Shown here: positions 2,803-22,180 of the stretch, piece by piece
How positions within the stretch are numbered: position 1 is the stretch's first letter
Layout of the letters: every line of letters begins with the position of its first letter
Origin: Candidatus Aenigmatarchaeota archaeon
GTDB taxonomy: Archaea > Aenigmatarchaeota > Aenigmatarchaeia > Aenigmatarchaeales > JACQIB01
Assembly: GCA_046760225.1 (NCBI GenBank)
Contig: JBHIDR010000002.1
Location: 2,176 to 26,175, forward strand
DNA: 24,000 bases
Reading direction: 5' to 3'
Notes under the pieces: model-generated
The model's database searches: none
Seen by the model: only the letters and a program-made list of their open reading frames with translations
What the model was told of the DNA's origin: nothing
Program-made: the position numbers and the translations under genes

Positions 2803-3252
2803 ATGGAAGGGTATAATAACGGTTTTAAGGACTTGATGGAAAGGGGCAGGCTACAAAAGAAGATGTACAAATATAAGAAGGGAGTGGAAATTGTCAGGGC
2901 AATCTATTGCTTTGAGAAGGCTGTAAAACTATGCCCGGATGATGTTACAGCACGTTATGAGCTTGCTGATTGCTGGCTTGAATTTGGCGGGCCTGATTCT
3001 GTTAAAAAGGCTATTGAGTATTTTGAGCCCACGTTCAATATAAGCAGAGAGACAGCAACCGAATATGCAGACATGCTGGCTCAGAGGCGCATGAATGTAG
3101 AGGATCCTGTTGGAGCAAGAAAGCTCTGGAGATTAATAATGGAATACAACCCTGAAGATTCTTTTGAAAGAAAGAACGCAAAAAAGAACGTAGAAGAGCT
3201 GACAGAGCTGATCAACCAGGGAAGATTCAGGACCCCGACCATGATGCGTTAA
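2803..3252 (+). CDS. hypothetical helical (TPR-like) protein
   Basis: 149-aa ORF with an SD-like AAAGGTGG upstream and a TATA-like TTTATATA near 2755. The repeat-like helical sequence is A..YFEKA..L.P.D. Confidence 0.55.
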   Translation: MEGYNNGFKDLMERGRLQKKMYKYKKGVEIVRAIYCFEKAVKLCPDDVTARYELADCWLEFGGPDSVKKAIEYFEPTFNISRETATEYADMLAQRRMNVEDPVGARKLWRLIMEYNPEDSFERKNAKKNVEELTELINQGRFRTPTMMR

Positions 3253-3262
3253 TTCAGATTAG

Positions 3263-3574
3263 TTAAAAATCTACATCCACTGCTTTTTTGAATTTTTTAA
3301 GAATTTTTTTAATTCTCTCTGGCTTGACTTTCAGCTTGGATATTATTTTTTCTTCAGAGAGAGGTATATATGCACCATCTCTTTTGTGAAGGATTAGAGC
3401 AGCTGCAAGAGCTTCATCATCTGTTACTTTCCTTATGCCTATTCTTTTACCGCTTATTAACATTGTTTGATTTATTGCAGCACCGTCCTCAACTTCTTTT
3501 TTATCTTTACCAAACAAATTTTCGCATTTTTTAATAAGCCTTAACCATCTTTTGTAGGCTTTACCAACAAGCAT
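3263..3574 (-). CDS. hypothetical small basic protein (AT-rich island gene 2)
   Basis: 103-aa ORF whose start abuts the stop of the upstream gene (3574/3575). A hand count of the adjacent island line 3601-3660 gives about 30% GC. Confidence 0.5.
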   Translation of the reverse strand: MLVGKAYKRWLRLIKKCENLFGKDKKEVEDGAAINQTMLISGKRIGIRKVTDDEALAAALILHKRDGAYIPLSEEKIISKLKVKPERIKKILKKFKKAVDVDF

Positions 3575-4597
3575 TTATCTTCTCCACCATCTAATTTTTA
3601 CTGTCCTTTTAGTTGGTGTTGATTTGGTTTTTGTTTTCGATTTAAAACCAAAAATAGAAGGCAATACTTTTCCTGCTTTTTTTGCTGCATTTGCAAATTT
3701 CTGCACGCTTTTTGCAAATGTTCCTATGGCCCTGCTGCCTGTTGTTCTTGCTTCTGTTTTCAATGTGCTTATTAGCCTGTTTGTGGCTGTAAATGGTCCT
3801 CTTGTCCTATCTGCTTCTGAGAGGAGTTTCATATTATTTTGGTATTTTGCTGTTGTGAGTATATCTGTAAATCTTTCATTAATCCATTTGTTATATTTTG
3901 TCCTTTTTGTAAGAAGATTTCTTGCGGGTTTTGAGAACTTTCCGAATCCTCTCAGATAGCCGTTGCTTGCCCTGATAGCAGCATGGGTTGCCTCATGCCT
4001 CGATACAAATTTTAATACGTCATCTTTCAATGCTTTCGACATAATTCTTATCTGCTGCGTGTCCAATAATATTTTTTTAGGCAATCCTTTTTTGTCAGGT
4101 ACGGTTTTTCCCAATGTGCCCAACTCGAGTCTTGCATTTTTTATTCTTATATTAAGCTTGACGCCGAGGTCTGTGAGTTCTTTTTTGACTGCTGCTTCTG
4201 CTGCTTTCTTTTGTGCATTGATTCTTGTGAAAAATGGCTTGATTTTTTCTATTAATGGCTTCTGGCCTTTGCTTGCCTTTATGTTCTCAGGCAGCTTCTT
4301 TACTTCGGCTTCTGGATTCTTTATTTCCGGGGCCTTGGGCTCGTATGGAGTGGCTGATTTCGGCTTTTCCCTTACCAGGAGGTCGTTTGGGTTCTCAGGA
4401 ACCTTGATTGCTCCTGGCATTTCCTGGGGTGTTTTGGGCCTTGGCAAGCTTATTTTGCCTGTTGGTATTTTTGGCGGGCGAAATTTGAGATAGGCCAGGC
4501 CTCCTGCCGCAGCAATTGTACCAGCAATGGCTGCAATTTCTACTGCACCCAGTTCAGCTACAATTGCGCCACCAGCAGCAACAAAGGGCAGAGGCAA
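3575..4597 (-). CDS. membrane-anchored Lys/Pro-rich protein with an HExxH motif (AT-rich island gene 1)
   Basis: 340-aa ORF starting at TTG, with an AGGTG SD 5 nt upstream. It has a Gly/Ala-rich N-terminal TM segment, a Pro/Lys-rich linker, SRHEATHAAI (HExxH) and a very basic C-terminus (KRTVKIRWWRR). Confidence 0.55.
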   Translation of the reverse strand: MPLPFVAAGGAIVAELGAVEIAAIAGTIAAAGGLAYLKFRPPKIPTGKISLPRPKTPQEMPGAIKVPENPNDLLVREKPKSATPYEPKAPEIKNPEAEVKKLPENIKASKGQKPLIEKIKPFFTRINAQKKAAEAAVKKELTDLGVKLNIRIKNARLELGTLGKTVPDKKGLPKKILLDTQQIRIMSKALKDDVLKFVSRHEATHAAIRASNGYLRGFGKFSKPARNLLTKRTKYNKWINERFTDILTTAKYQNNMKLLSEADRTRGPFTATNRLISTLKTEARTTGSRAIGTFAKSVQKFANAAKKAGKVLPSIFGFKSKTKTKSTPTKRTVKIRWWRR

Positions 4598-14360: not shown

Positions 14361-14390
14361 ATCCTTTGATTGAAAAATCAGGGACGAATT
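14361..14390 (+). other. candidate 30-nt bulge-helix-bulge (BHB) intron in top6B mRNA
   Basis: In-frame insert containing TGA (14367-14369). The fold is a 4-bp central helix 14355-14358/14385-14388 flanked by 3-nt bulges 14359-14361 and 14389-14391. The inner stem 14362-14371/14376-14384 carries a GAAA loop, and the outer stem is 14348-14354/14392-14398. Canonical cleavage after bulge nt 2 gives exactly 14360^14391. Confidence 0.7.
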
Positions 14391-16157
14391 AAGAATCGCC
14401 ACCTGCTCGGCTTTGACAACCCTGCAAAGGCTTTGCTCACTGTTGTGCGTGAGGCTGTTGACAATTCGTTGGATGCCTGTGAGGATGCAAGGATACTTCC
14501 TGAGATAAAGATAACAGTGCAGGAGCCAAGGGAAATATACTCTATAATGGATGAAGAAGGCGACATCATAGGCGAGTTCATTGTTGAAGGAAAGAAAGTA
14601 AAGTTCATATCAGAAGGCTCGACCCTGCCTCTGGAGAAAAAGGAAGAAAAACGAAAGGGCAATGTCTATGTGTTTGAAAAGGAAGGAAAGAAGATAAAGG
14701 TAAAGGAAATCCTGACTGGTGATGAAAGGCTGATAGAGGTTTCAAGGGGAAAGACAAAGTACAAGGTAACAAAGGCGCCTGTTGACAGGTTCAAGATAAT
14801 TATTGAGGACAATGGCCCTGGAATAGTGAAGGAGCAGATACCGAGCATATTCGGAAGGCTGCTCTATGGTTCAAAGTTCTACAAGCTCAGGCAGAGCAGG
14901 GGCCAGCAGGGTGTGGGAATATCAGCTGCTGTGCTTTATTCCCAGCTCACAACAGGCAAGCCGACCATAATCTATTCAAGGACAGGACCGAAAAAGCCTG
15001 TCAACATAATGCACCTGAGAATCAATGTCACAAAGAACAGGCCTGAAATAATAAAGGAAGAGACAATGAAAGACGGTTTCCGGGAAAGGGGAGTAAGGAT
15101 AGACATGGAAATAGAGGGCAAGTACATGAAGAGGTACCATTCTGTTTTCGAATATCTCAAACAGACAGCAACTGTCAACCCATTTGCGCACATCATATTC
15201 AATTCACCTGACGGCACAAAGCACGAGTTCCCAAGGACAGTGAAAGAGCTGCCCAAACTACCCAAGGACATCAAGCCACACCCGCTCGGAGTGGAAGTGG
15301 GCATGCTTGAAAGGATGTCAAGACTGACAAGGACAAGGAATGTTGTGGGTTTTCTGTCGGGTGACTTCTGCAGGGTAGGTCCCGGGACAGCAAAGAAAAT
15401 TGTTAAGCGAGCAGGAATAAAGGGATCAACAAGCCCGAAGGCACTGACACATGAACAGATCAACAAGCTATGGAGGGCAATACATGCAACTGACTTCATG
15501 AAGCCTCCTCTTGATTGTCTGAGCCCAATAGGTTCGGGTAAACTGGAAGAAGGAATGAGAAAGGAATACAGTCCTGAGTTCGTGTTTGCGGTCTCCAGAC
15601 CACCTTCTGTTTACAGGGGCATGCCCTTCAAGATAGAGGCTGCAATAGCGTATGGTGGCGATGTATCAAAGGAAGGAGCTGTGAAGATTATGCGCTTTGC
15701 AAACAGGGTGCCTTTGCTTTATCAGGCAAGCTCATGCGCAATAACAAAGGCTGTGCACAAGATTGACTGGAAGCACTATGGTCTTGACATGCACGGAACC
15801 ACTCCTTATGGTCCTGCTGTTATAGCAGTTCACATGGCATCTGTATGGATACCTTATACTTCCGAGTCAAAGGAAGCAATAGACCCGTATCCAATAATAA
15901 AAAAGGAAATAAGGCTTGCCCTGCAGGAATGTGGAAGAAAACTGCAGAGATTTGTTTCAGGAAGAAGGAGGGCGCAGGAAGTGCAGAAAAGAATAAGCCT
16001 TTTCGAGAAGTACATACCTGAAATTGCCTTTGCCTTGTCAAACCTTACAGGAGAGAAAAAGGAAAAAATAGTAAAAGATTTTGAAAAGATGCTGAAAAGG
16101 GGGAAGAAAGAAGATGAAGAGGTCGAAAAAGAAAAAGGAGAAGAAGCCAAAGGATAA
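14391..16157 (+). CDS. top6B: DNA topoisomerase VI subunit B, exon 2 (GHKL ATPase, H2TH, transducer)
   Basis: KNRHLLGFDNPAKALLTVVREAVDNSLDA (N box), EDNGPGI (G1), FGRLLYGSKF..SRGQQGVGISAAVLYSQ (G2) and VPLLYQ...WIPYTSESKEAI. The track ORF 14370..16157 uses a TTG inside the candidate intron. Confidence 0.9.
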   Translation, partial: KNRHLLGFDNPAKALLTVVREAVDNSLDACEDARILPEIKITVQEPREIYSIMDEEGDIIGEFIVEGKKVKFISEGSTLPLEKKEEKRKGNVYVFEKEGKKIKVKEILTGDERLIEVSRGKTKYKVTKAPVDRFKIIIEDNGPGIVKEQIPSIFGRLLYGSKFYKLRQSRGQQGVGISAAVLYSQLTTGKPTIIYSRTGPKKPVNIMHLRINVTKNRPEIIKEETMKDGFRERGVRIDMEIEGKYMKRYHSVFEYLKQTATVNPFAHIIFNSPDGTKHEFPRTVKELPKLPKDIKPHPLGVEVGMLERMSRLTRTRNVVGFLSGDFCRVGPGTAKKIVKRAGIKGSTSPKALTHEQINKLWRAIHATDFMKPPLDCLSPIGSGKLEEGMRKEYSPEFVFAVSRPPSVYRGMPFKIEAAIAYGGDVSKEGAVKIMRFANRVPLLYQASSCAITKAVHKIDWKHYGLDMHGTTPYGPAVIAVHMASVWIPYTSESKEAIDPYPIIKKEIRLALQECGRKLQRFVSGRRRAQEVQKRISLFEKYIPEIAFALSNLTGEKKEKIVKDFEKMLKRGKKEDEEVEKEKGEEAKG

Positions 16158-17214
16158 GGTTGTCGGTATAGGAAAGGGAATAATAAGTGATGTACGTAAA
16201 GGAATGAATCCGAAACTTGATGTTCCCATAAGGGCACTGAGCAATGTGATATTTGATGCCAAGAAAAAGCTTCTGGTTATGGGTGACAAGACATCAAGCA
16301 GGTTCTTCTTCAATGTCGCACATGTAAGGAAGTTTGTACAGACCATGGAGGTCGCAGCAACAGCAAAAGAACTTCTTGATGCAAAGAAGCACATCAGCCT
16401 GAGGCAGGCATTTTATAAAATGAGGAGGACAATACCTGGAACCAATATCGACATTGTTGATGAGCAGAAGGAATCAAATGATGCAGTGGAAGACCTTGAG
16501 CTGCTCACAGGCCTTTCCAGGGAACAGCTTCACATCAATGCCAACAAGAACGGCGCTGCAGCAGGAAAGATTGTAATTAAGGACAAGGGAGACCTGATAA
16601 ACTGGTCAAAGCTTGGAAGCGGTGGATGGGCAATCCCGTCCAATACAGAGGACATAGAGTTCAAAAAAGTAGATGCAAAATTTATCATCTATATGGAAAA
16701 AATGGCCATGTGGGAAAGGCTGCATGAAGACAGGGTATGGGACAAGATGAACTGTGTGATAATCGCTTCACAGGGACAGGCAACCAGAGGCATCCGCAGG
16801 CTGCTGCAGAGGATGAACAAGGAGCTAAAGCTTCCTGTTTATGTGTTAGTCGACAATGATAGTTGGGGGGTATATATTTATTCTGTTTTGAAATTCGGTT
16901 CAATCTCTCTTGCATATGCTTCTGATAAACTAGCAATACCAAGTGCAAAGTTAATTGGTCTTACTTGTGATGATATTATAAAATACAATCTTAAAAAACA
17001 TATAATTAAGTTCAAAGATGTCGATAAAAAAAGATTGGAACAAATAGGAAAATATGACTGGTTTAAAGACAATAAAGCATGGCAAAGACAGTTTAAGATG
17101 ATGAAACAACAAGGCGGAAAGGTAGAATTGGATGCCCTTGTTGCAAAGGGAGTTAGTTTTATATCAGATGTTTACCTTCCAGAAAAAATAAAGAAGAGAG
17201 ATTTTTTGGATTAG
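16114..17214 (+). CDS. top6A: DNA topoisomerase VI subunit A (Spo11 family)
   Basis: SLRQAFY (catalytic Tyr region), Toprim VLVDNDSWG and a C-terminal VELDALVAKG..YLPEKI. It overlaps the top6B end by 44 nt. From about 16855 the codon composition drops to about 30-35% GC. Confidence 0.9.
   Translation: MKRSKKKKEKKPKDKVVGIGKGIISDVRKGMNPKLDVPIRALSNVIFDAKKKLLVMGDKTSSRFFFNVAHVRKFVQTMEVAATAKELLDAKKHISLRQAFYKMRRTIPGTNIDIVDEQKESNDAVEDLELLTGLSREQLHINANKNGAAAGKIVIKDKGDLINWSKLGSGGWAIPSNTEDIEFKKVDAKFIIYMEKMAMWERLHEDRVWDKMNCVIIASQGQATRGIRRLLQRMNKELKLPVYVLVDNDSWGVYIYSVLKFGSISLAYASDKLAIPSAKLIGLTCDDIIKYNLKKHIIKFKDVDKKRLEQIGKYDWFKDNKAWQRQFKMMKQQGGKVELDALVAKGVSFISDVYLPEKIKKRDFLD
17146..17214 (+). repeat. top6A C-terminal tail, copy A (AT-rich, in the expressed gene)
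   Basis: KGVSFISDVYLPEKIKKRDFLD-stop is homologous at protein and DNA level to 18431-18490. Confidence 0.7.
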
Positions 17215-17222
17215 AATTTTCT

Positions 17223-17329
17223 GATTTCGCTTGTTCCACCTCGCAAATGAATTCGGAACCTGAACCCCAATCCTAGCAGAGGGTTCAGAACCCTCACAAA
17301 TCCAAGCGAGGTGATAAATGTGCGAAATC
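17223..17329 (+). other. 107-nt nested-helix RNA element between top6A and the homing endonuclease gene
   Basis: Three perfect 8-bp helices: GATTTCGC 17223-17230 / GCGAAATC 17322-17329; CACCTCGC 17237-17244 / GCGAGGTG 17306-17313; CTGAACCC 17260-17267 / GGGTTCAG 17281-17288. An alternative local hairpin is GAGGG 17279-17283 / CCCTC 17291-17295. The second helix sequesters an SD-like GAGGTGAT. Confidence 0.45.
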
Positions 17330-17370
17330 AATTAGAAAATTTAAATAAAAATAACTCAAATATTTATTGT

Positions 17371-18490
17371 ATGAAAATAATAACTAAGAGCTTTATTCCA
17401 ACATCTATTGATAAAAGAGTGTTCTTTTTTGAGGAGCTAAAGGATAAAATCAAAGTTTTTTTCTAAAAGAACTGGAAGCGGAAGTAACCCCAAACCATTT
17501 ATACTTCCTAAAGAAATTGAAATTGATGAGGTTTTCACTGAAGCTGTTGGTTTATATGTTGGTGATGGAAAATTAACAAAAAATGATTTAACACATGCAG
17601 GATTTGTAAATAAAGACAAGGATATTATAAAGTTCATGTTTCAATTTTTTAGAAATGTAATGAATGTACCTATAGAAAGAATGTGTATAACAATAGGATA
17701 TAAAAATGAAGACGAAGAGAAAATAAGAGAGAAATGGTCAAAAATACTTGATATTAATGAAGCAAAATTCAGATTTCAAAAATCAAATAGACATAAATTT
17801 GAAACGGTAGATGTTCAGATTAACAGTTTCGTTTTTAGAGTAATTTTTCAGAACATCCTTGAACATTCCCTACAAGTAATAAAAAGAAATAAAAAGTTAA
17901 GAAGAGGGTTTCTAAGGGGTTACTTTGCTGCTGAGGGTACAATTGGTTTTAAAGAAAAAGATAATTGCATTGAATATATAGGCTTTTCTTATAATCCTTT
18001 GGGTGAAGGTTGGTTAAGAAATTTTTGCATAGATTGTCTTAGAATCGAAGGAATAAAAGCAAAATACAAAGAAAGAGATGGAAACAGGGCAGAAATTATA
18101 ATTAATAAATGGAAAAATTATTCGAAATTATGGGAAATTAGAATTTTTGACAGATGTGAAAGAAAAAAACAGAAGTTCACAAAAATACTTAACTCAAGAG
18201 AATTTTATTGTAAACTTAATGATGAATTTAGACTTGAGTTTTTTGATTCAATAAACCTGTATCAAAGGGATATTGCAAAAATAATAAATTCATGGCAAGG
18301 AAATGTATGCAAAACTATACAAGGAAAACATTTAATGACAATAAACCAAATAAAAAGGCTTATTCCGTATTCAAAATTCTCAAAGGAGGATATAAATAAA
18401 AATATAGAAGGTGTAAGAATAGGTAATATGAGGGGGTTTGTCTCTGACAAGTATCTTCCTGAGAAAAATAAGGAAGAAGGACTGGATTGA
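17371..18490 (+). CDS. double-motif LAGLIDADG homing endonuclease, frameshifted at a T7 run (17456-17462); its last ~20 codons are the relic top6A tail
   Basis: Motif 1 is AVGLYVGDGKL (17543-17575) and motif 2 is FLRGYFAAEGT (17909-17941), about 124 aa apart. The frame-1 part MKIITKSFIPTSIDKRVFFFEELKDKIKVFF stops at 17464-17466. The frame-2 part is open from 17441, and removing one T joins them. The track ORF is 17636..18490. Confidence 0.75.
18431..18490 (+). repeat. top6A C-terminal tail, copy B (GC-richer, presumed native remnant fused to the endonuclease ORF)
   Basis: RGFVSDKYLPEKNKEEGLD-stop. Its stop abuts the convergent downstream gene (18490/18491), as native gene ends do elsewhere in this window. 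Confidence 0.65.
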
Positions 18491-18871
18491 TTAATGTATA
18501 ACGCGCTTGATTGCTTCTTTAATCATTTCTTTAGGAGGATAGGGATATTGCTTTCCTTTGAAGAAATAGGTTCGGCATCCGCACATGCATTCCTGTTTTA
18601 CAAATTCAGTTGTCCCCTTTGTTTGTTCAGCAAGCTCTTCGCATGACATACATCTTCCTTTGCTAACTTCTTCCTGGATATCTTTTCCATTGATTGTAAC
18701 AGAAGGCGAGCCTACAAAATTGTACTTTTTTGCCCTTTCATCAGAATCAATCAATGTTTCCTCTACTTCAGCCTTAACTCCAAGTTCCTTCAAACTTTCT
18801 TTAACCAGCCCTTTGGTCTTGACACAATGAGGGCAATTGAGTATATACAGTATCTGTATTTTCATAACCAT
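18491..18871 (-). CDS. thioredoxin-fold protein (CPHC active site) with a Cys-rich C-terminal extension
   Basis: ILYILNCPHCVKTK ... VGSPSVTING (cis-Pro region), then CMSC and CMCGC. Confidence 0.7.
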   Translation of the reverse strand: MVMKIQILYILNCPHCVKTKGLVKESLKELGVKAEVEETLIDSDERAKKYNFVGSPSVTINGKDIQEEVSKGRCMSCEELAEQTKGTTEFVKQECMCGCRTYFFKGKQYPYPPKEMIKEAIKRVIH

Positions 18872-18911
18872 AATTCAGCGCAAGCACTTAAATAACTAAG
18901 CCAGGCAAAAC

Positions 18912-18920
18912 AATTTAAAC
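18912..18920 (+). promoter_or_regulatory. TATA-like box upstream of the structured RNA candidate
   Basis: AATTTAAAC is centred about 26-29 nt upstream of the GGGG at 18945. Confidence 0.3.
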
Positions 18921-18943
18921 GCTTAGATTTAATCAGATTAGTA

Positions 18944-19182
18944 TGGGGCTGGCCGTATAGGCTGGGGCAGTAATCCTTTTGGAGGACTGCATGCTCAGCC
19001 CGGGAGAGCGCTACATCCGATTGGAGGCGAACCTGAAGACTCGGATGAGCGGCAAGGTAGACACCGGCACTTTTGTGTTGATGGCTCATTTGTCGCGTGC
19101 GTGCATCAGGTACCTCTGGTGTGCCGCGAATTCAAATGGGAGTTAGGTCTCCTATCTTCCTGAAGCTCACGCCTGCCCCACC
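18944..19182 (+). ncRNA. GC-rich structured RNA candidate of unknown class (strand uncertain)
   Basis: A block of about 240 nt, much GC-richer than its flanks, lies in a 548-nt gap with no convincing ORF. Terminal pairing is TGGGGC-T-GGC 18944-18953 with GCC-T-GCCCCA 19171-19180. Hairpins are 18967-18990 (GCAGT..ACTGC), 19014-19047 (CATCCGA / TCGGATG, 7 bp), 19065-19126 (CGGCAC / GTGCCG) and 19139-19152. Confidence 0.5.
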
Positions 19183-19236
19183 AAATTTCTTCGTCGAACA
19201 GATGAAGTCTTTGTACATTGATAGGAGGTGGAGCAA

Positions 19237-19395
19237 ATGCACATAAACTATACAAACAAGCCAGAAGGCTGGAAAATGAAAGAATGGGGAAAGATATACG
19301 TAGACAAACCAGGACATTACGAATTTGATGCACCGTCAAACAGATGGATATATAAGGGTGATAAAAATGAAGGAGAAGATAAGCGTATTCTTTAA
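19237..19395 (+). CDS. small hypothetical protein (52 aa)
   Basis: Hand translation gives MHINYTNKPEGWKMKEWGKIYVDKPGHYEFDAPSNRWIYKGDKNEGEDKRIL. A strong SD AGGAGGTGG lies 5 nt upstream. The ORF is below the track length cut-off. Confidence 0.45.
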   Translation: MHINYTNKPEGWKMKEWGKIYVDKPGHYEFDAPSNRWIYKGDKNEGEDKRIL

Positions 19396-19419
19396 ATCTT
19401 TGGAGGACAATCATATTGC

Positions 19420-19995
19420 ATGAAAATAGGCATCATAGGGACATTCAATACAGGAAAGACGTCTCTTTGCCATTCCCTTGTGGGTGCACTGAAGGAGAAG
19501 GGGGTGAGGGCCGAGTTTGTTCCAGAATCAGTAAGGAACTGCCCAATGCCTGCTGGCACAGAGGGCAACAGCACACTGGATTCCCAGATGTGGATAATAG
19601 CAAAGCAGGTAGCAAATGAGATGGAGGCTGAGCACAACAATGATGTCATTGTATGCGACAGTAATATAGTGAACATCTATGCATACTTTCTTTCAATTCT
19701 CAAGAACACACCTAACCCCAAAGAGGAGTTTGTCAGCATTGCAAAATCAGTGCTTGAAGAGTGGCACAAGACATATGACTTCCTCTTCAAGCTCACAATA
19801 CCAAAGGAGAAGCAGATGATGATAACAAATGACGGCTTCAGGTCAGTGAACCTGAAATGGCAGAAGGAGATTGATGTATTAATTGACCAGATCATCAGTT
19901 CTCTGGGTATAAAGGTATATGAAATACCGCTTGATTCTAATCTGGAGAGGGTAAGAAAAATAATGAGAATAATAGAGGAGAATAAGCCTTTTTAA
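19420..19995 (+). CDS. AAA_28-like P-loop NTPase
   Basis: Walker A GTFNTGKTS, Walker B-like VIVCDS and a GGAGG SD upstream. Confidence 0.65.
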   Translation: MKIGIIGTFNTGKTSLCHSLVGALKEKGVRAEFVPESVRNCPMPAGTEGNSTLDSQMWIIAKQVANEMEAEHNNDVIVCDSNIVNIYAYFLSILKNTPNPKEEFVSIAKSVLEEWHKTYDFLFKLTIPKEKQMMITNDGFRSVNLKWQKEIDVLIDQIISSLGIKVYEIPLDSNLERVRKIMRIIEENKPF

Positions 19996-20614: not shown

Positions 20615-21106
20615 ATGGAAGCTGAAGTCAAGGAAGACAAGGTTATTGTAGAGGAAGGGGAAGAGCTGTATGAGCAGGGATGGTATGGCAATCTTGAGGG
20701 AAAGAAGCTGATACTTGACCTGGTCGAGGCAGTGCTGCTCATGGAAAGGGCAAAGATAGAGCTCAAGGACATGGACTTCAAGGAGTTCTTCCACTACTGC
20801 TCCAAGATTGACCCCAGATTCACAGCCAGATATGCTGTTTACAGGGACCTCAGGGATAGGGGGCTTCCTGTGAGAACAGGTTTCAAGGGAAGTGATTTCA
20901 GGGTTTATGAAAGGGGGGCAAAGCCGAAAAAGCAAGGGAAGGTCAAGTGGATAGTTTTTGCAGAAGCAGAGGACTATCCCTGTGAAATGGAAAAGCTCGG
21001 AAAGGCAATAAAGCTGGGAAAGAACATAAGGGCTGTTGCACTCTGGGCTATTGTGGATAATGATTTAGATGTGACATATTATATAATTAATTCGATTTCA
21101 CCGTGA
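20615..21106 (+). CDS. endA: tRNA-splicing endonuclease paralog lacking the catalytic His (structural-type subunit)
   Basis: RYAVYRDLRDRGLPVRTGFKGSDFRVYERG ... WAIVDNDLDVTYY matches the EndA C-terminal domain. The loop after YERG reads AKPKKQGKVKW, with Gly where the catalytic His is expected. Confidence 0.8.
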   Translation: MEAEVKEDKVIVEEGEELYEQGWYGNLEGKKLILDLVEAVLLMERAKIELKDMDFKEFFHYCSKIDPRFTARYAVYRDLRDRGLPVRTGFKGSDFRVYERGAKPKKQGKVKWIVFAEAEDYPCEMEKLGKAIKLGKNIRAVALWAIVDNDLDVTYYIINSISP

Positions 21107-21672
21107 TTGATATGAGTGTTATAGAGACTATCAAAAAAAGAAGGAGTATAAGAAAATTCAAAAGGAAAGAGGTGCCTGAATATATTATAAAGAAAATCTT
21201 GAACGCTGCAAGGCTTGCTCCTTCAGGTAACAATGCCCAGCCTTCAAACTATATCATAATCAAGGATAAGAAAACAAAGGAAATGCTAAAGAAAAACAAG
21301 ATATTTGTGCAAAATTTGGTGTATGATGTCCCATTGATAATAGCATGCTGTGCGAATCCCGATGCTTATCCCAAGACCAAATTTATTGAAGGTGTTGATG
21401 ACCCTAATGTTGCAAGGGCTTTAAGAGACCTTTCAATTGCCTCTTCATATCTTGTATTAGCAGCAACAGAACTGGGTCTTGGTTGTTGTTATATAGGATG
21501 GATGAACAAGAAAAAGGCGAAGAGAGTGTTGGGAATACCTAAGAATTTCATCTTTCCTTATGTCATAATATGTGGCTACCCCAATGAAAAAAGGAAAAGG
21601 AGCAAAAAGAAGTCTCTTAAAGAAATACTACATCATGAGAAGTGGTGGTATGATAAAGGCGCAACTTGCTGA
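21103..21672 (+). CDS. nitroreductase-family protein
   Basis: RRSIRKF..., ARLAPSGNNAQP and the typical FMN-binding pattern. The start is GTG 21103 (overlapping the upstream stop) or ATG 21112. Confidence 0.85.
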   Translation: MIDMSVIETIKKRRSIRKFKRKEVPEYIIKKILNAARLAPSGNNAQPSNYIIIKDKKTKEMLKKNKIFVQNLVYDVPLIIACCANPDAYPKTKFIEGVDDPNVARALRDLSIASSYLVLAATELGLGCCYIGWMNKKKAKRVLGIPKNFIFPYVIICGYPNEKRKRSKKKSLKEILHHEKWWYDKGATC

Positions 21673-22180
21673 GGACAGGGTGATTGTATGGGAAAAGAAG
21701 GCAGCTGAGAAGCTGTACGGTGAAGGCACTTTCGGGAAGATGAGAAACGAGAAGCTTGAGCTTGCGCTCATAGAGGCAGCCTATCTGGTTGATAAGGGAA
21801 AGATAAAGATTGTTGAAGATAGAAAGAAGATTGACAAGGAAAGGTTCTTTGATTATTGCAAAAAGCTTGACAAGAGGTTCGATCACAGGTATGCTGTTTA
21901 CAAGGACCTCAGGGAAAGGGAACTTGCTGTCAGAACAGGCTTCAAGTTCGGCTGTGATTTCAGGGTATATGCAAAGGGAGTCAGGCCATTGAAGAGGGGT
22001 CCAAAAACAGCACGGGAGCACACAAAATGGGTTGTTTTCGCAGTGCCTGAGAAATATGTTTTCAGCTTTCCAGAGCTGTCCAGGGCAGTGAGGCTTGCGC
22101 ACAACATAAGGGCAAATATGTTATGGGCAATTGTGGGAAAGAAGATAAAATATGTTCAGGTTCAGTTTTTTAAACCTTAG
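21650..22180 (+). CDS. endA: tRNA-splicing endonuclease, catalytic-type subunit
   Basis: RYAVYKDLRERELAVRTGFKFGCDFRVYAKG....REHTKWVVF....RLAHNIRANMLWAIV, with the Tyr and His of the triad present. The start was chosen at ATG 21650 (GGTGGT upstream). The track ORF from 21572 overlaps the nitroreductase gene. Confidence 0.85.
   Translation: MIKAQLAEDRVIVWEKKAAEKLYGEGTFGKMRNEKLELALIEAAYLVDKGKIKIVEDRKKIDKERFFDYCKKLDKRFDHRYAVYKDLRERELAVRTGFKFGCDFRVYAKGVRPLKRGPKTAREHTKWVVFAVPEKYVFSFPELSRAVRLAHNIRANMLWAIVGKKIKYVQVQFFKP

Follow-up and report, generated by a model that had tools for sequence, protein, structure and literature searches.

A putative free-standing LAGLIDADG homing-endonuclease cassette at the 3' end of top6A in a Candidatus Aenigmatarchaeota genome

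Why does an essential gene such as top6A, which encodes a subunit of topoisomerase VI, change its guanine-plus-cytosine (GC) content abruptly in its last third, and why does a second copy of its end lie beyond a LAGLIDADG endonuclease gene? The question is raised by a stretch of 24,000 nucleotides (nt), here called the window, from a metagenome-assembled genome (MAG) of a Candidatus Aenigmatarchaeota archaeon (DPANN). An earlier note on this DNA had proposed that a free-standing homing endonuclease invaded top6A. Our analysis supports this proposal, and we consider it about 80% probable that the locus holds a free-standing LAGLIDADG homing-endonuclease cassette specialised for the top6A 3' end. 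Two outcomes had been named as counting against the idea, namely an AT-rich top6A end in relatives without the endonuclease and an insignificant similarity of the two tails. Neither was found. The features on which the argument is built are as follows (positions in the window).

16114-17214, plus strand: top6A, 366 amino acids (aa), open throughout; Pfam PF21180 Toprim at residues 190-359 (E = 2.5e-56)

16114-16836, plus strand: 5' two-thirds of top6A, read as native; 44% GC, 83% nt and 93.6% aa identity to the closest relative (L004/P0002)

16837-17214, plus strand: AT-rich 3' third of top6A, read as foreign; 31% GC, 23.5% GC at third codon positions (GC3); remaining part of Toprim and replacement tail 1

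17146-17214, plus strand: replacement tail 1, which completes top6A; stop TAG 17212-17214

17198-17358, no strand: imperfect hairpin (inverted repeat) between the top6A stop and the endonuclease start

17371-17466, plus strand: N-terminal 31 codons of the endonuclease; ATG 17371, ending at a stop through the frameshift in a run of seven T (T7)

17462-18436, plus strand: main open frame of the endonuclease, with LAGLIDADG motifs 1 and 2 and a C-terminal helix-turn-helix (HTH) domain

18437-18494, plus strand: tail 2, read as the displaced native top6A 3' end from its alignment to the top6A genes of L004 and L005; direct repeat of tail 1

The GC content was 53.3% at 16741-16800, 35.0% at 16861-16920 and 30.0% at 16921-16980, and this recount agrees exactly with the earlier hand counts (53, 35 and 30%). 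The abrupt fall, previously placed near 16855, was borne out, with the break at about 16836-16855. The stretch 16855-18490 has 29.5% GC compared with 45.0% upstream and 43.7% downstream, and the lowest-GC stretch of 1636 nt in the window begins at 16836. As had been claimed, the Top6A frame and homology persist past the drop: the frame is open to the TAG at 17212-17214, and the Toprim match is full.

Top6A was aligned with its best 120 homologues, among which P0002 (contig L004) is the closest relative. Identity to P0002 was 93.6% over residues 30-247 and 68.1% over residues 248-366. In a control set of 125 Top6A pairs with an N-terminal identity of at least 90%, the mean C-terminal identity was 92.5% (standard deviation 6, minimum 73%), and the 68.1% of the window falls outside this range. 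The nt identity to L004 dropped from 83% to 65%. The maximum chi-square breakpoint was at 16836, within the codons for the conserved Toprim motif VLVDNDSWG, and GC3 dropped from 51.8% to 23.5% where identity dropped. In the endonuclease-free L004 and L005, the last 240 nt of top6A have 43-50% GC and no dip, so that the first of the two adverse outcomes was not seen. These comparisons point to a foreign origin of the 3' third. We count the chimerism of top6A, which is still an intact gene, as established.

A donor was searched for with the foreign C-terminal 127 aa, and no match above 72% identity was obtained. Among the Top6A proteins of all endonuclease-bearing loci, the maximum was 72% and none was identified as the donor. 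The best C-terminal identity to any sampled Top6A was 72-75%. The foreign tract of 360 nt looks more like a co-converted donor flank than like a designed recoding. Over the FxSDxYLPE codons, tail 1 differs from the native sequence at 9 of 27 nt, or about one in three by our own count, and these differences could make the resident copy cleavage-resistant.

The duplicated top6A tail described earlier was found independently by a repeat finder (17184-17213 against 18464-18493, 73% identity), and its match to native sequence is far above chance. When 17215-18520 was compared with top6A of L004, there was a single local match, in which 18437-18494 corresponded to the last 57 nt of the gene including the stop. 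The score was 60 against L004 (maximum of 200 shuffles: 32) and 51 against L005 (shuffle maximum: 32). With both 3' ends matching well above the shuffle maximum, the similarity of the tail proved significant.

Tail 2 contains one extra A in an A5 run (18464-18468), which is a +1 frameshift. Its native-frame reading is FVSDKYLPEKIRKKDWID, followed by TAA 18492-18494, with 16 of 18 residues identical to the tails of P0002 and P0003; the native frame would end EKIRKKDWID-TAA. In the endonuclease frame, the stop is TGA 18488-18490. The resulting EEGLD-stop end, which abuts the convergent downstream gene, had been taken for a native terminus. This part of the earlier note did not hold: the native stop is TAA 18492-18494, and the ending and the abutment are incidental, produced by a frameshift in a leftover sequence on which selection no longer acts. 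The claim of a native tail left fused in frame to the endonuclease open reading frame (ORF) stood for the native tail and for the fusion. It did not stand as a general feature, as the fusion is specific to this locus. The ORF happens to read into the native tail because the endonuclease is on the same strand as top6A. As a conserved feature the fusion was rejected, since in L068 a stop codon separates the endonuclease from tail 2, and in L071 and L076 the frames are different. Tail 2 is best taken as the displaced native end of top6A, now decaying, and its native identity is counted as established.

The endonuclease gene lies at 17371-18436, and its true start is ATG 17371. It had been described as a 23%-GC double-motif LAGLIDADG gene; the double motif was confirmed, and the GC content was corrected to 27%. 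The T7 run at 17456-17462 carries a frameshift, and without one T the two frames join into 355 aa. The ORF listing begins the gene at 17636, 3' of motif 1, because there is no in-frame start codon before motif 1. At its N-terminal end (MKIITKSFIP...EELKDKIKV), the protein aligns with the start of intact homologues of 370 aa. An assembly error was considered as the cause of the frameshift and rejected, as the identical lesion is present in three further assemblies of the same population (SRR29324583, SRR29324586 and SRR29324587); raw reads were not inspected. The frameshift is a lesion specific to this copy, because most homologues are intact and align from the first residue.

LAGLIDADG motif 1 (EAVGLYVGDGK) is at 17540-17572 with the catalytic D65 (17564-17566), and motif 2 (FLRGYFAAEG) is at 17897-17941 with E188 (17933-17935). 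All 26 family members have E or D at position 188 (scan pattern FLRG[YHL]FAA[ED]), and D65 does not vary. An XRE/lambda-repressor-like HTH follows in the C-terminal part (about 18221-18400; match to a lambda-repressor-like chain, E = 0.0015). LAGLIDADG_3 matched 25 of 26 family members (best E-value 4.5e-12), and the window protein alone reached 19.3 bits with a cutoff of 22.5. HTH_3 was matched by 6 of 26 members, as was LAGLIDADG_WhiA.

The AlphaFold2 model (predicted local distance difference test 92.9, predicted TM-score 0.86) has the pseudo-dimeric alpha-beta-beta-alpha-beta-beta-alpha fold of LAGLIDADG enzymes. Its top Foldseek matches were I-DmoI, WhiA, I-AniI, I-Tsp061I and I-SceI, all with a probability of 1.00, and the target-normalised TM-score to I-DmoI was about 0.66-0.70. 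We regard the fold and the catalytic residues as secure. In sum, the protein is a double-motif LAGLIDADG monomer that carries an additional WhiA-like HTH and keeps its catalytic residues.

The family C-terminus RIGN(M/G)(R/K)xF(V/I)xDK (18428-18455 in the window) was seen to resemble the Top6A tail (K)GxxF(V/I)SDKY. This likeness may be due to chance, an old fusion or recombination microhomology.

An intron or an intein at top6A was also considered. The gene has its own stop (TAG 17212-17214), and neither an Rfam intron model nor the Pfam Intein_splicing domain was matched there. The endonuclease gene is therefore read as free-standing, beside a host gene that appears complete without splicing.

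Between the two genes, a structured spacer of 107 nt had been described. The structure was confirmed and the extent was not, as a long imperfect hairpin spans 17198-17358. Its minimum free energy was -48.5 kcal/mol (z = -5.9), and 0 of 200 shuffles folded as well. The hairpin core alone (17215-17321) gave z = -3.1 on the plus and -4.9 on the minus strand. It has a host-like GC content of 44.9% inside a cassette of 27-31% GC. No Rfam family was matched at gathering or relaxed thresholds, and BLAST detected no similarity to the spacers of related loci. The spacer may act as a terminator or insulator; alternatively, it may be a small palindrome that was inserted.

Homology searching with the joined 355-aa query returned a family of 32 LAGLIDADG homologues, 31 of them in other genomes (DPANN MAGs); they were 33-56% identical and mostly intact with about 370 aa. 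For the family scan, four homologues were examined individually, and then one genome per species plus JGI metagenomes were searched with the family alignment, giving about 90 loci. All homologues with at least about 31% identity and enough flank were at the top6A 3' end (about 55 DPANN loci), except for L018 and L021. Homologues below 30% identity had no top6A linkage. The linkage of the family to top6A is firmly established. The endonuclease was convergent with top6A in about 39 loci, with stop codons overlapping by 4-55 nt, and co-directional in 20 loci including the window, where it was found 90-320 nt 3' of top6A.

Three side observations concern individual loci. In L018 (1-2549), the endonuclease gene lies upstream of top6A and points away from it, and in L021 no top6A lies within 4 kb; the two represent one sub-clade that has left the usual site. 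In the Nanoarchaeota-labelled genome that carries the closest sister endonuclease, top6B (L006, 6137-9116; L007, 2330-5309) contains an intein with its own LAGLIDADG (Intein_splicing and LAGLIDADG_3; product longer than 1000 aa). Therefore, both topoisomerase VI subunits are parasitised there by different endonuclease-bearing elements. In L010, a shorter second LAGLIDADG_3 ORF (631-1302, 223 aa) was found about 2.7 kb from the top6A-associated endonuclease, adjoining a peptidase M54 gene.

The closest sister endonucleases (L006, L045) are on the strand opposite to top6A, and in the neighbour-joining tree orientation was mostly clade-specific. As the window endonuclease is nested in the convergent clade, its co-directional orientation is derived. 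An in-place inversion of a convergent cassette via the FVxDK similarity was examined and rejected: in that case the minus strand of the spacer should hold what is left of the endonuclease C-terminus, and this remnant is absent. An 'ARIG' motif was seen on that strand, and the family hidden Markov model gave about 0 bits in all six frames. The orientation switch itself is real.

At least 20 loci have a second copy of their own top6A tail beyond the endonuclease, on the top6A strand. The protein scores of the duplicated tails were 42-100, compared with 22-34 in loci without duplication. Second tails often reach past the stop codon by a few bases, and internal stops or frameshifts are common in them. 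The clearest cases are L068 and L076 among the co-directional loci and L045, L017, L080, L061, L057 and L053 among the convergent ones. Tail duplication is thus demonstrably recurrent. The arrangement in the window is one instance of a recurrent cassette, consisting of a replacement tail and an endonuclease, that is found in either orientation 10-35 codons before the native stop. The cassette idea of the earlier note is corroborated by the approximately 55 related loci, at least 20 of them with duplicated tails.

Moreover, the element appears mobile. No endonuclease was matched at the locus of the closest relative L004 (94% N-terminal identity) or of the syntenic L005. Both represent the empty site with a native 3' end that had been suggested as a check. 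Presence of the endonuclease at a fixed genomic site is patchy among close relatives, and we treat this distribution as established. Some copies are decayed: besides the frameshifted copy in the window, L026 is interrupted by a frameshift and L033 has lost an internal segment.

Dips in GC limited to the last 240-360 nt of top6A were observed in L011 (from 44-52% to 23-26%), L015, L017 and L027. Discordant N- and C-terminal identities of Top6A were seen as well. Compared with the nearest relative, the values were 95% (N-terminal) and 76% (C-terminal) for L043 and 89% and 73% for L009; they were 88.5% and 95% for the pair L014-L054 and 68% and 80% for the pair L052-L019. This is the pattern of co-conversion of flanking top6A, from which we infer the mechanism. 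In L062, the endonuclease shares 54-59% identity with its counterparts in L052, L057 and L059, whose Top6A proteins are only 36-41% identical to that of L062. For L073 and L076 the relation is reversed, with 80-82% identity to L062 in Top6A and only 29-33% in the endonuclease. On these identities, L062 is a clear case of cross-lineage endonuclease transfer, and horizontal transfer is counted as established for the family.

The following course of events would explain the locus. The mobile unit would have two parts, a stop-containing replacement tail for top6A and the endonuclease gene (double-motif core and C-terminal HTH). The target of the enzyme would be a top6A allele without the endonuclease, cut close to the conserved ...F(V/I)S(D/E)KY(L/I)PEK... 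codons, and the break would be resected and then repaired from a cassette-bearing donor. Along with the cassette, repair would introduce a stretch of upstream donor top6A that varies in length. In the window, the upstream crossover would lie about 360-380 nt before the stop, at the most conserved Toprim motif. The other crossover would lie inside the tail, leaving a chimeric intact top6A and a displaced native tail of 58 nt. The frameshift in the endonuclease would have been acquired later, as expected of a homing endonuclease after fixation. That the enzyme cuts the native site, that the resident copy resists it and that the element entered by break repair (homing) is what we infer from the sequence comparisons. 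As to the wider claim, that a still-active, top6A-specific LAGLIDADG-HTH family acts as a gene-drive-like element across DPANN archaea, we would give it even odds.

Several points weigh against the homing-cassette reading. A full-length protein cannot be made from the window copy other than by slippage at the T7 run. As the donor was not found, co-transfer of the foreign tract with this particular endonuclease is not demonstrated. The nt identity between donor and recipient top6A would be about 65-70%, a low value for ordinary homologous repair, so that short conserved patches must have served for the crossover. The family C-terminus RIGNMRSFVYDKT resembles the top6A tail TFVSDKY, so that the junction between endonuclease and tail 2 can be placed no finer than 18434-18449. 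Since the 5' boundary of tail 2 varies among loci (30-105 nt before the stop), no single insertion or cleavage site can be defined. Finally, the host-like GC content and the strong hairpin of the spacer are left unexplained.

The alternative that survives best is ordinary horizontal transfer with homeologous or illegitimate recombination, in which the endonuclease would be a passive or long-dead passenger and no break would have been induced. It agrees with the frameshifted copy in the window, the donor-recipient identity of about 65%, the crossover at a short conserved motif and the missing donor. We nevertheless consider it improbable. Without a site-specific driver, it is hard to see how the family would come to occupy one and the same gene end in about 55 loci, with tail duplications and 3'-specific chimerism arising again and again. 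In addition, 349 codons are open at 27% GC except for one homopolymer frameshift, and the inactivation is therefore recent.

It is less probable again, and in our view distinctly unlikely, that the LAGLIDADG-HTH protein is a domesticated host factor, either a WhiA-like regulator or a partner of topoisomerase VI, with a functional linkage to top6A. A LAGLIDADG core with a C-terminal HTH is the architecture of WhiA, full-length WhiA (3hyi) was among the best fold matches, LAGLIDADG_WhiA was found in 6 of 26 members and the top6A linkage is conserved over DPANN lineages. A host factor is difficult to reconcile with an invariant D65 and an acidic residue of FAA[ED]G kept in 26 of 26 members, or with a patchy distribution in which even the close relatives L004 and L005 have no endonuclease. 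The genes have a higher AT content than the host, frameshifts or deletions have damaged some copies, duplicated tails remain as insertion scars, both orientations of the gene occur, and the endonuclease and host phylogenies are incongruent.

The weakest alternative, that nothing is foreign and the 3' third is a fast-evolving native segment with tail 2 as the endonuclease's own C-terminus or a chance likeness, could draw on the xF(V/I)xDK motif at the aligned position of the family C-terminus and on the mere 73% identity between the tails, but it is highly improbable and, as far as sequence analysis goes, already refuted by the 58-nt match of tail 2 to the closest relative including the stop (60 against a shuffle maximum of 32), by the exact coincidence of the identity drop with the GC and GC3 step, and by an N/C split outside the control distribution while endonuclease-free relatives lack the dip.

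How does the proposed homing cassette compare with known systems? Allomyces atp6/ORF360, reportedly described by Paquin et al. in 1994, is an endonuclease gene with a duplicated C-terminal segment. Comparable organelle arrangements, which the earlier note had mentioned, are indeed documented: in Endoconidiophora resinifera mitochondria, cob and atp6 have partial C-terminal duplications with LAGLIDADG or GIY-YIG ORFs (PMC6279837). The arrangement in the window resembles the fungal mitochondrial cases in that an essential gene has a LAGLIDADG ORF at its 3' end, the gene is completed by a C-terminal segment that is foreign or duplicated, and the native end stays 3' as a remnant. Two C-terminal copies flank the endonuclease; the upstream one completes top6A and the downstream one is the remnant. 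Unlike the fungal cases, the present one is on an archaeal chromosome, targets top6A and has an extra HTH. The family also occurs in either orientation, mostly antisense with overlapping stops, and in several DPANN phyla.

In T4-like phages, intronless homing by the free-standing seg and mob endonucleases is accompanied by co-conversion of flanking markers (PMC2988022, PMC2790892, PMC2330249). Similarities are a gene beside its target, patchy presence among relatives and flanking host-gene sequence that is dragged along, giving mosaic genes. In contrast to the present LAGLIDADG protein, the phage enzymes are GIY-YIG or HNH and carry no replacement gene end. Phage homing, furthermore, occurs in co-infection.

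I-DmoI and other archaeal monomeric LAGLIDADG enzymes provided the best structural match, with two motifs and conserved acidic residues. They are encoded in ribosomal RNA introns and only 11-15% identical to the present protein, which is not intron-encoded and has about 370 aa, an N-terminal extension of about 55 aa and a C-terminal HTH. The bacterial regulator WhiA has the same order of a double LAGLIDADG scaffold followed by a C-terminal HTH. WhiA is a conserved host regulator without the catalytic acidic residues. The present family differs from it by keeping D65 and E/D188, by its mobile-element behaviour and by its patchy distribution, and was not assigned to WhiA.

The literature searched covers inteins in topoisomerase VI subunits and free-standing endonucleases in phages and organelles. 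No free-standing LAGLIDADG endonuclease at top6A or in DPANN archaea was found in it; as coverage was incomplete, this is absence of evidence only. The type of mechanism is known, and what is new is the host domain, the target gene, the domain architecture and the breadth of the family.

The remainder of the locus is given by the two adjacent genes.

14370-16157, plus strand: top6B, with Pfam Topo-VIb_trans (E = 3.2e-61) and HATPase_c; overlaps the top6A start by 44 nt

18491-18871, minus strand: thioredoxin-like gene, convergent, with Pfam DUF2703 and Thioredoxin_3

Further 3' of the thioredoxin-like gene are an AAA_28 ATPase, a peptidase M54 and two paralogues of the transfer RNA (tRNA)-splicing endonuclease. 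The gene order in L005 is syntenic with the window (RIO1, KH, top6B, top6A, peptidase M54 and two splicing-endonuclease genes). L005 lacks the thioredoxin-like/DUF2703 and AAA_28 ATPase genes of 18491-19995 and has one unrelated ORF of 120 aa instead, and the interval from top6A to M54 appears to be a variable region. A nitroreductase gene (21103-21672) lies in a low-GC patch (36% at 21001-21600) between the splicing-endonuclease paralogues (20615-21106 and 21572-22180). It is probably another insertion, because the two paralogues are directly adjacent in L005. Another low-GC stretch (34-38%, 3001-4200) contains two minus-strand ORFs of 340 and 103 aa that have no Pfam match. No tRNA genes were found in the 24,000 nt of the window.

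With this finding, intronless homing by elements that supply their own gene end, familiar from fungal mitochondria and phages, reaches archaeal chromosomes and a core gene of DNA topology. It means that an essential phylogenetic marker of the Top6A/Spo11 family can be mosaic in DPANN archaea via a selfish element, which matters for tree building and for the quality control of MAGs. Because homing needs donor and recipient DNA in one cell, the family testifies to an exchange of DNA between DPANN lineages. About 30 intact and diverse monomeric LAGLIDADG-HTH enzymes whose natural target region is known are raw material for meganuclease engineering. If the gene-drive-like reading is true, no intronless-homing system in archaeal chromosomes would have been described before this one, and the family would be the catalytically competent counterpart of the WhiA architecture. 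Each invasion would overwrite up to the last third (Toprim) of an essential Spo11-family gene, and the top6A of such lineages would be a recombinant mosaic.

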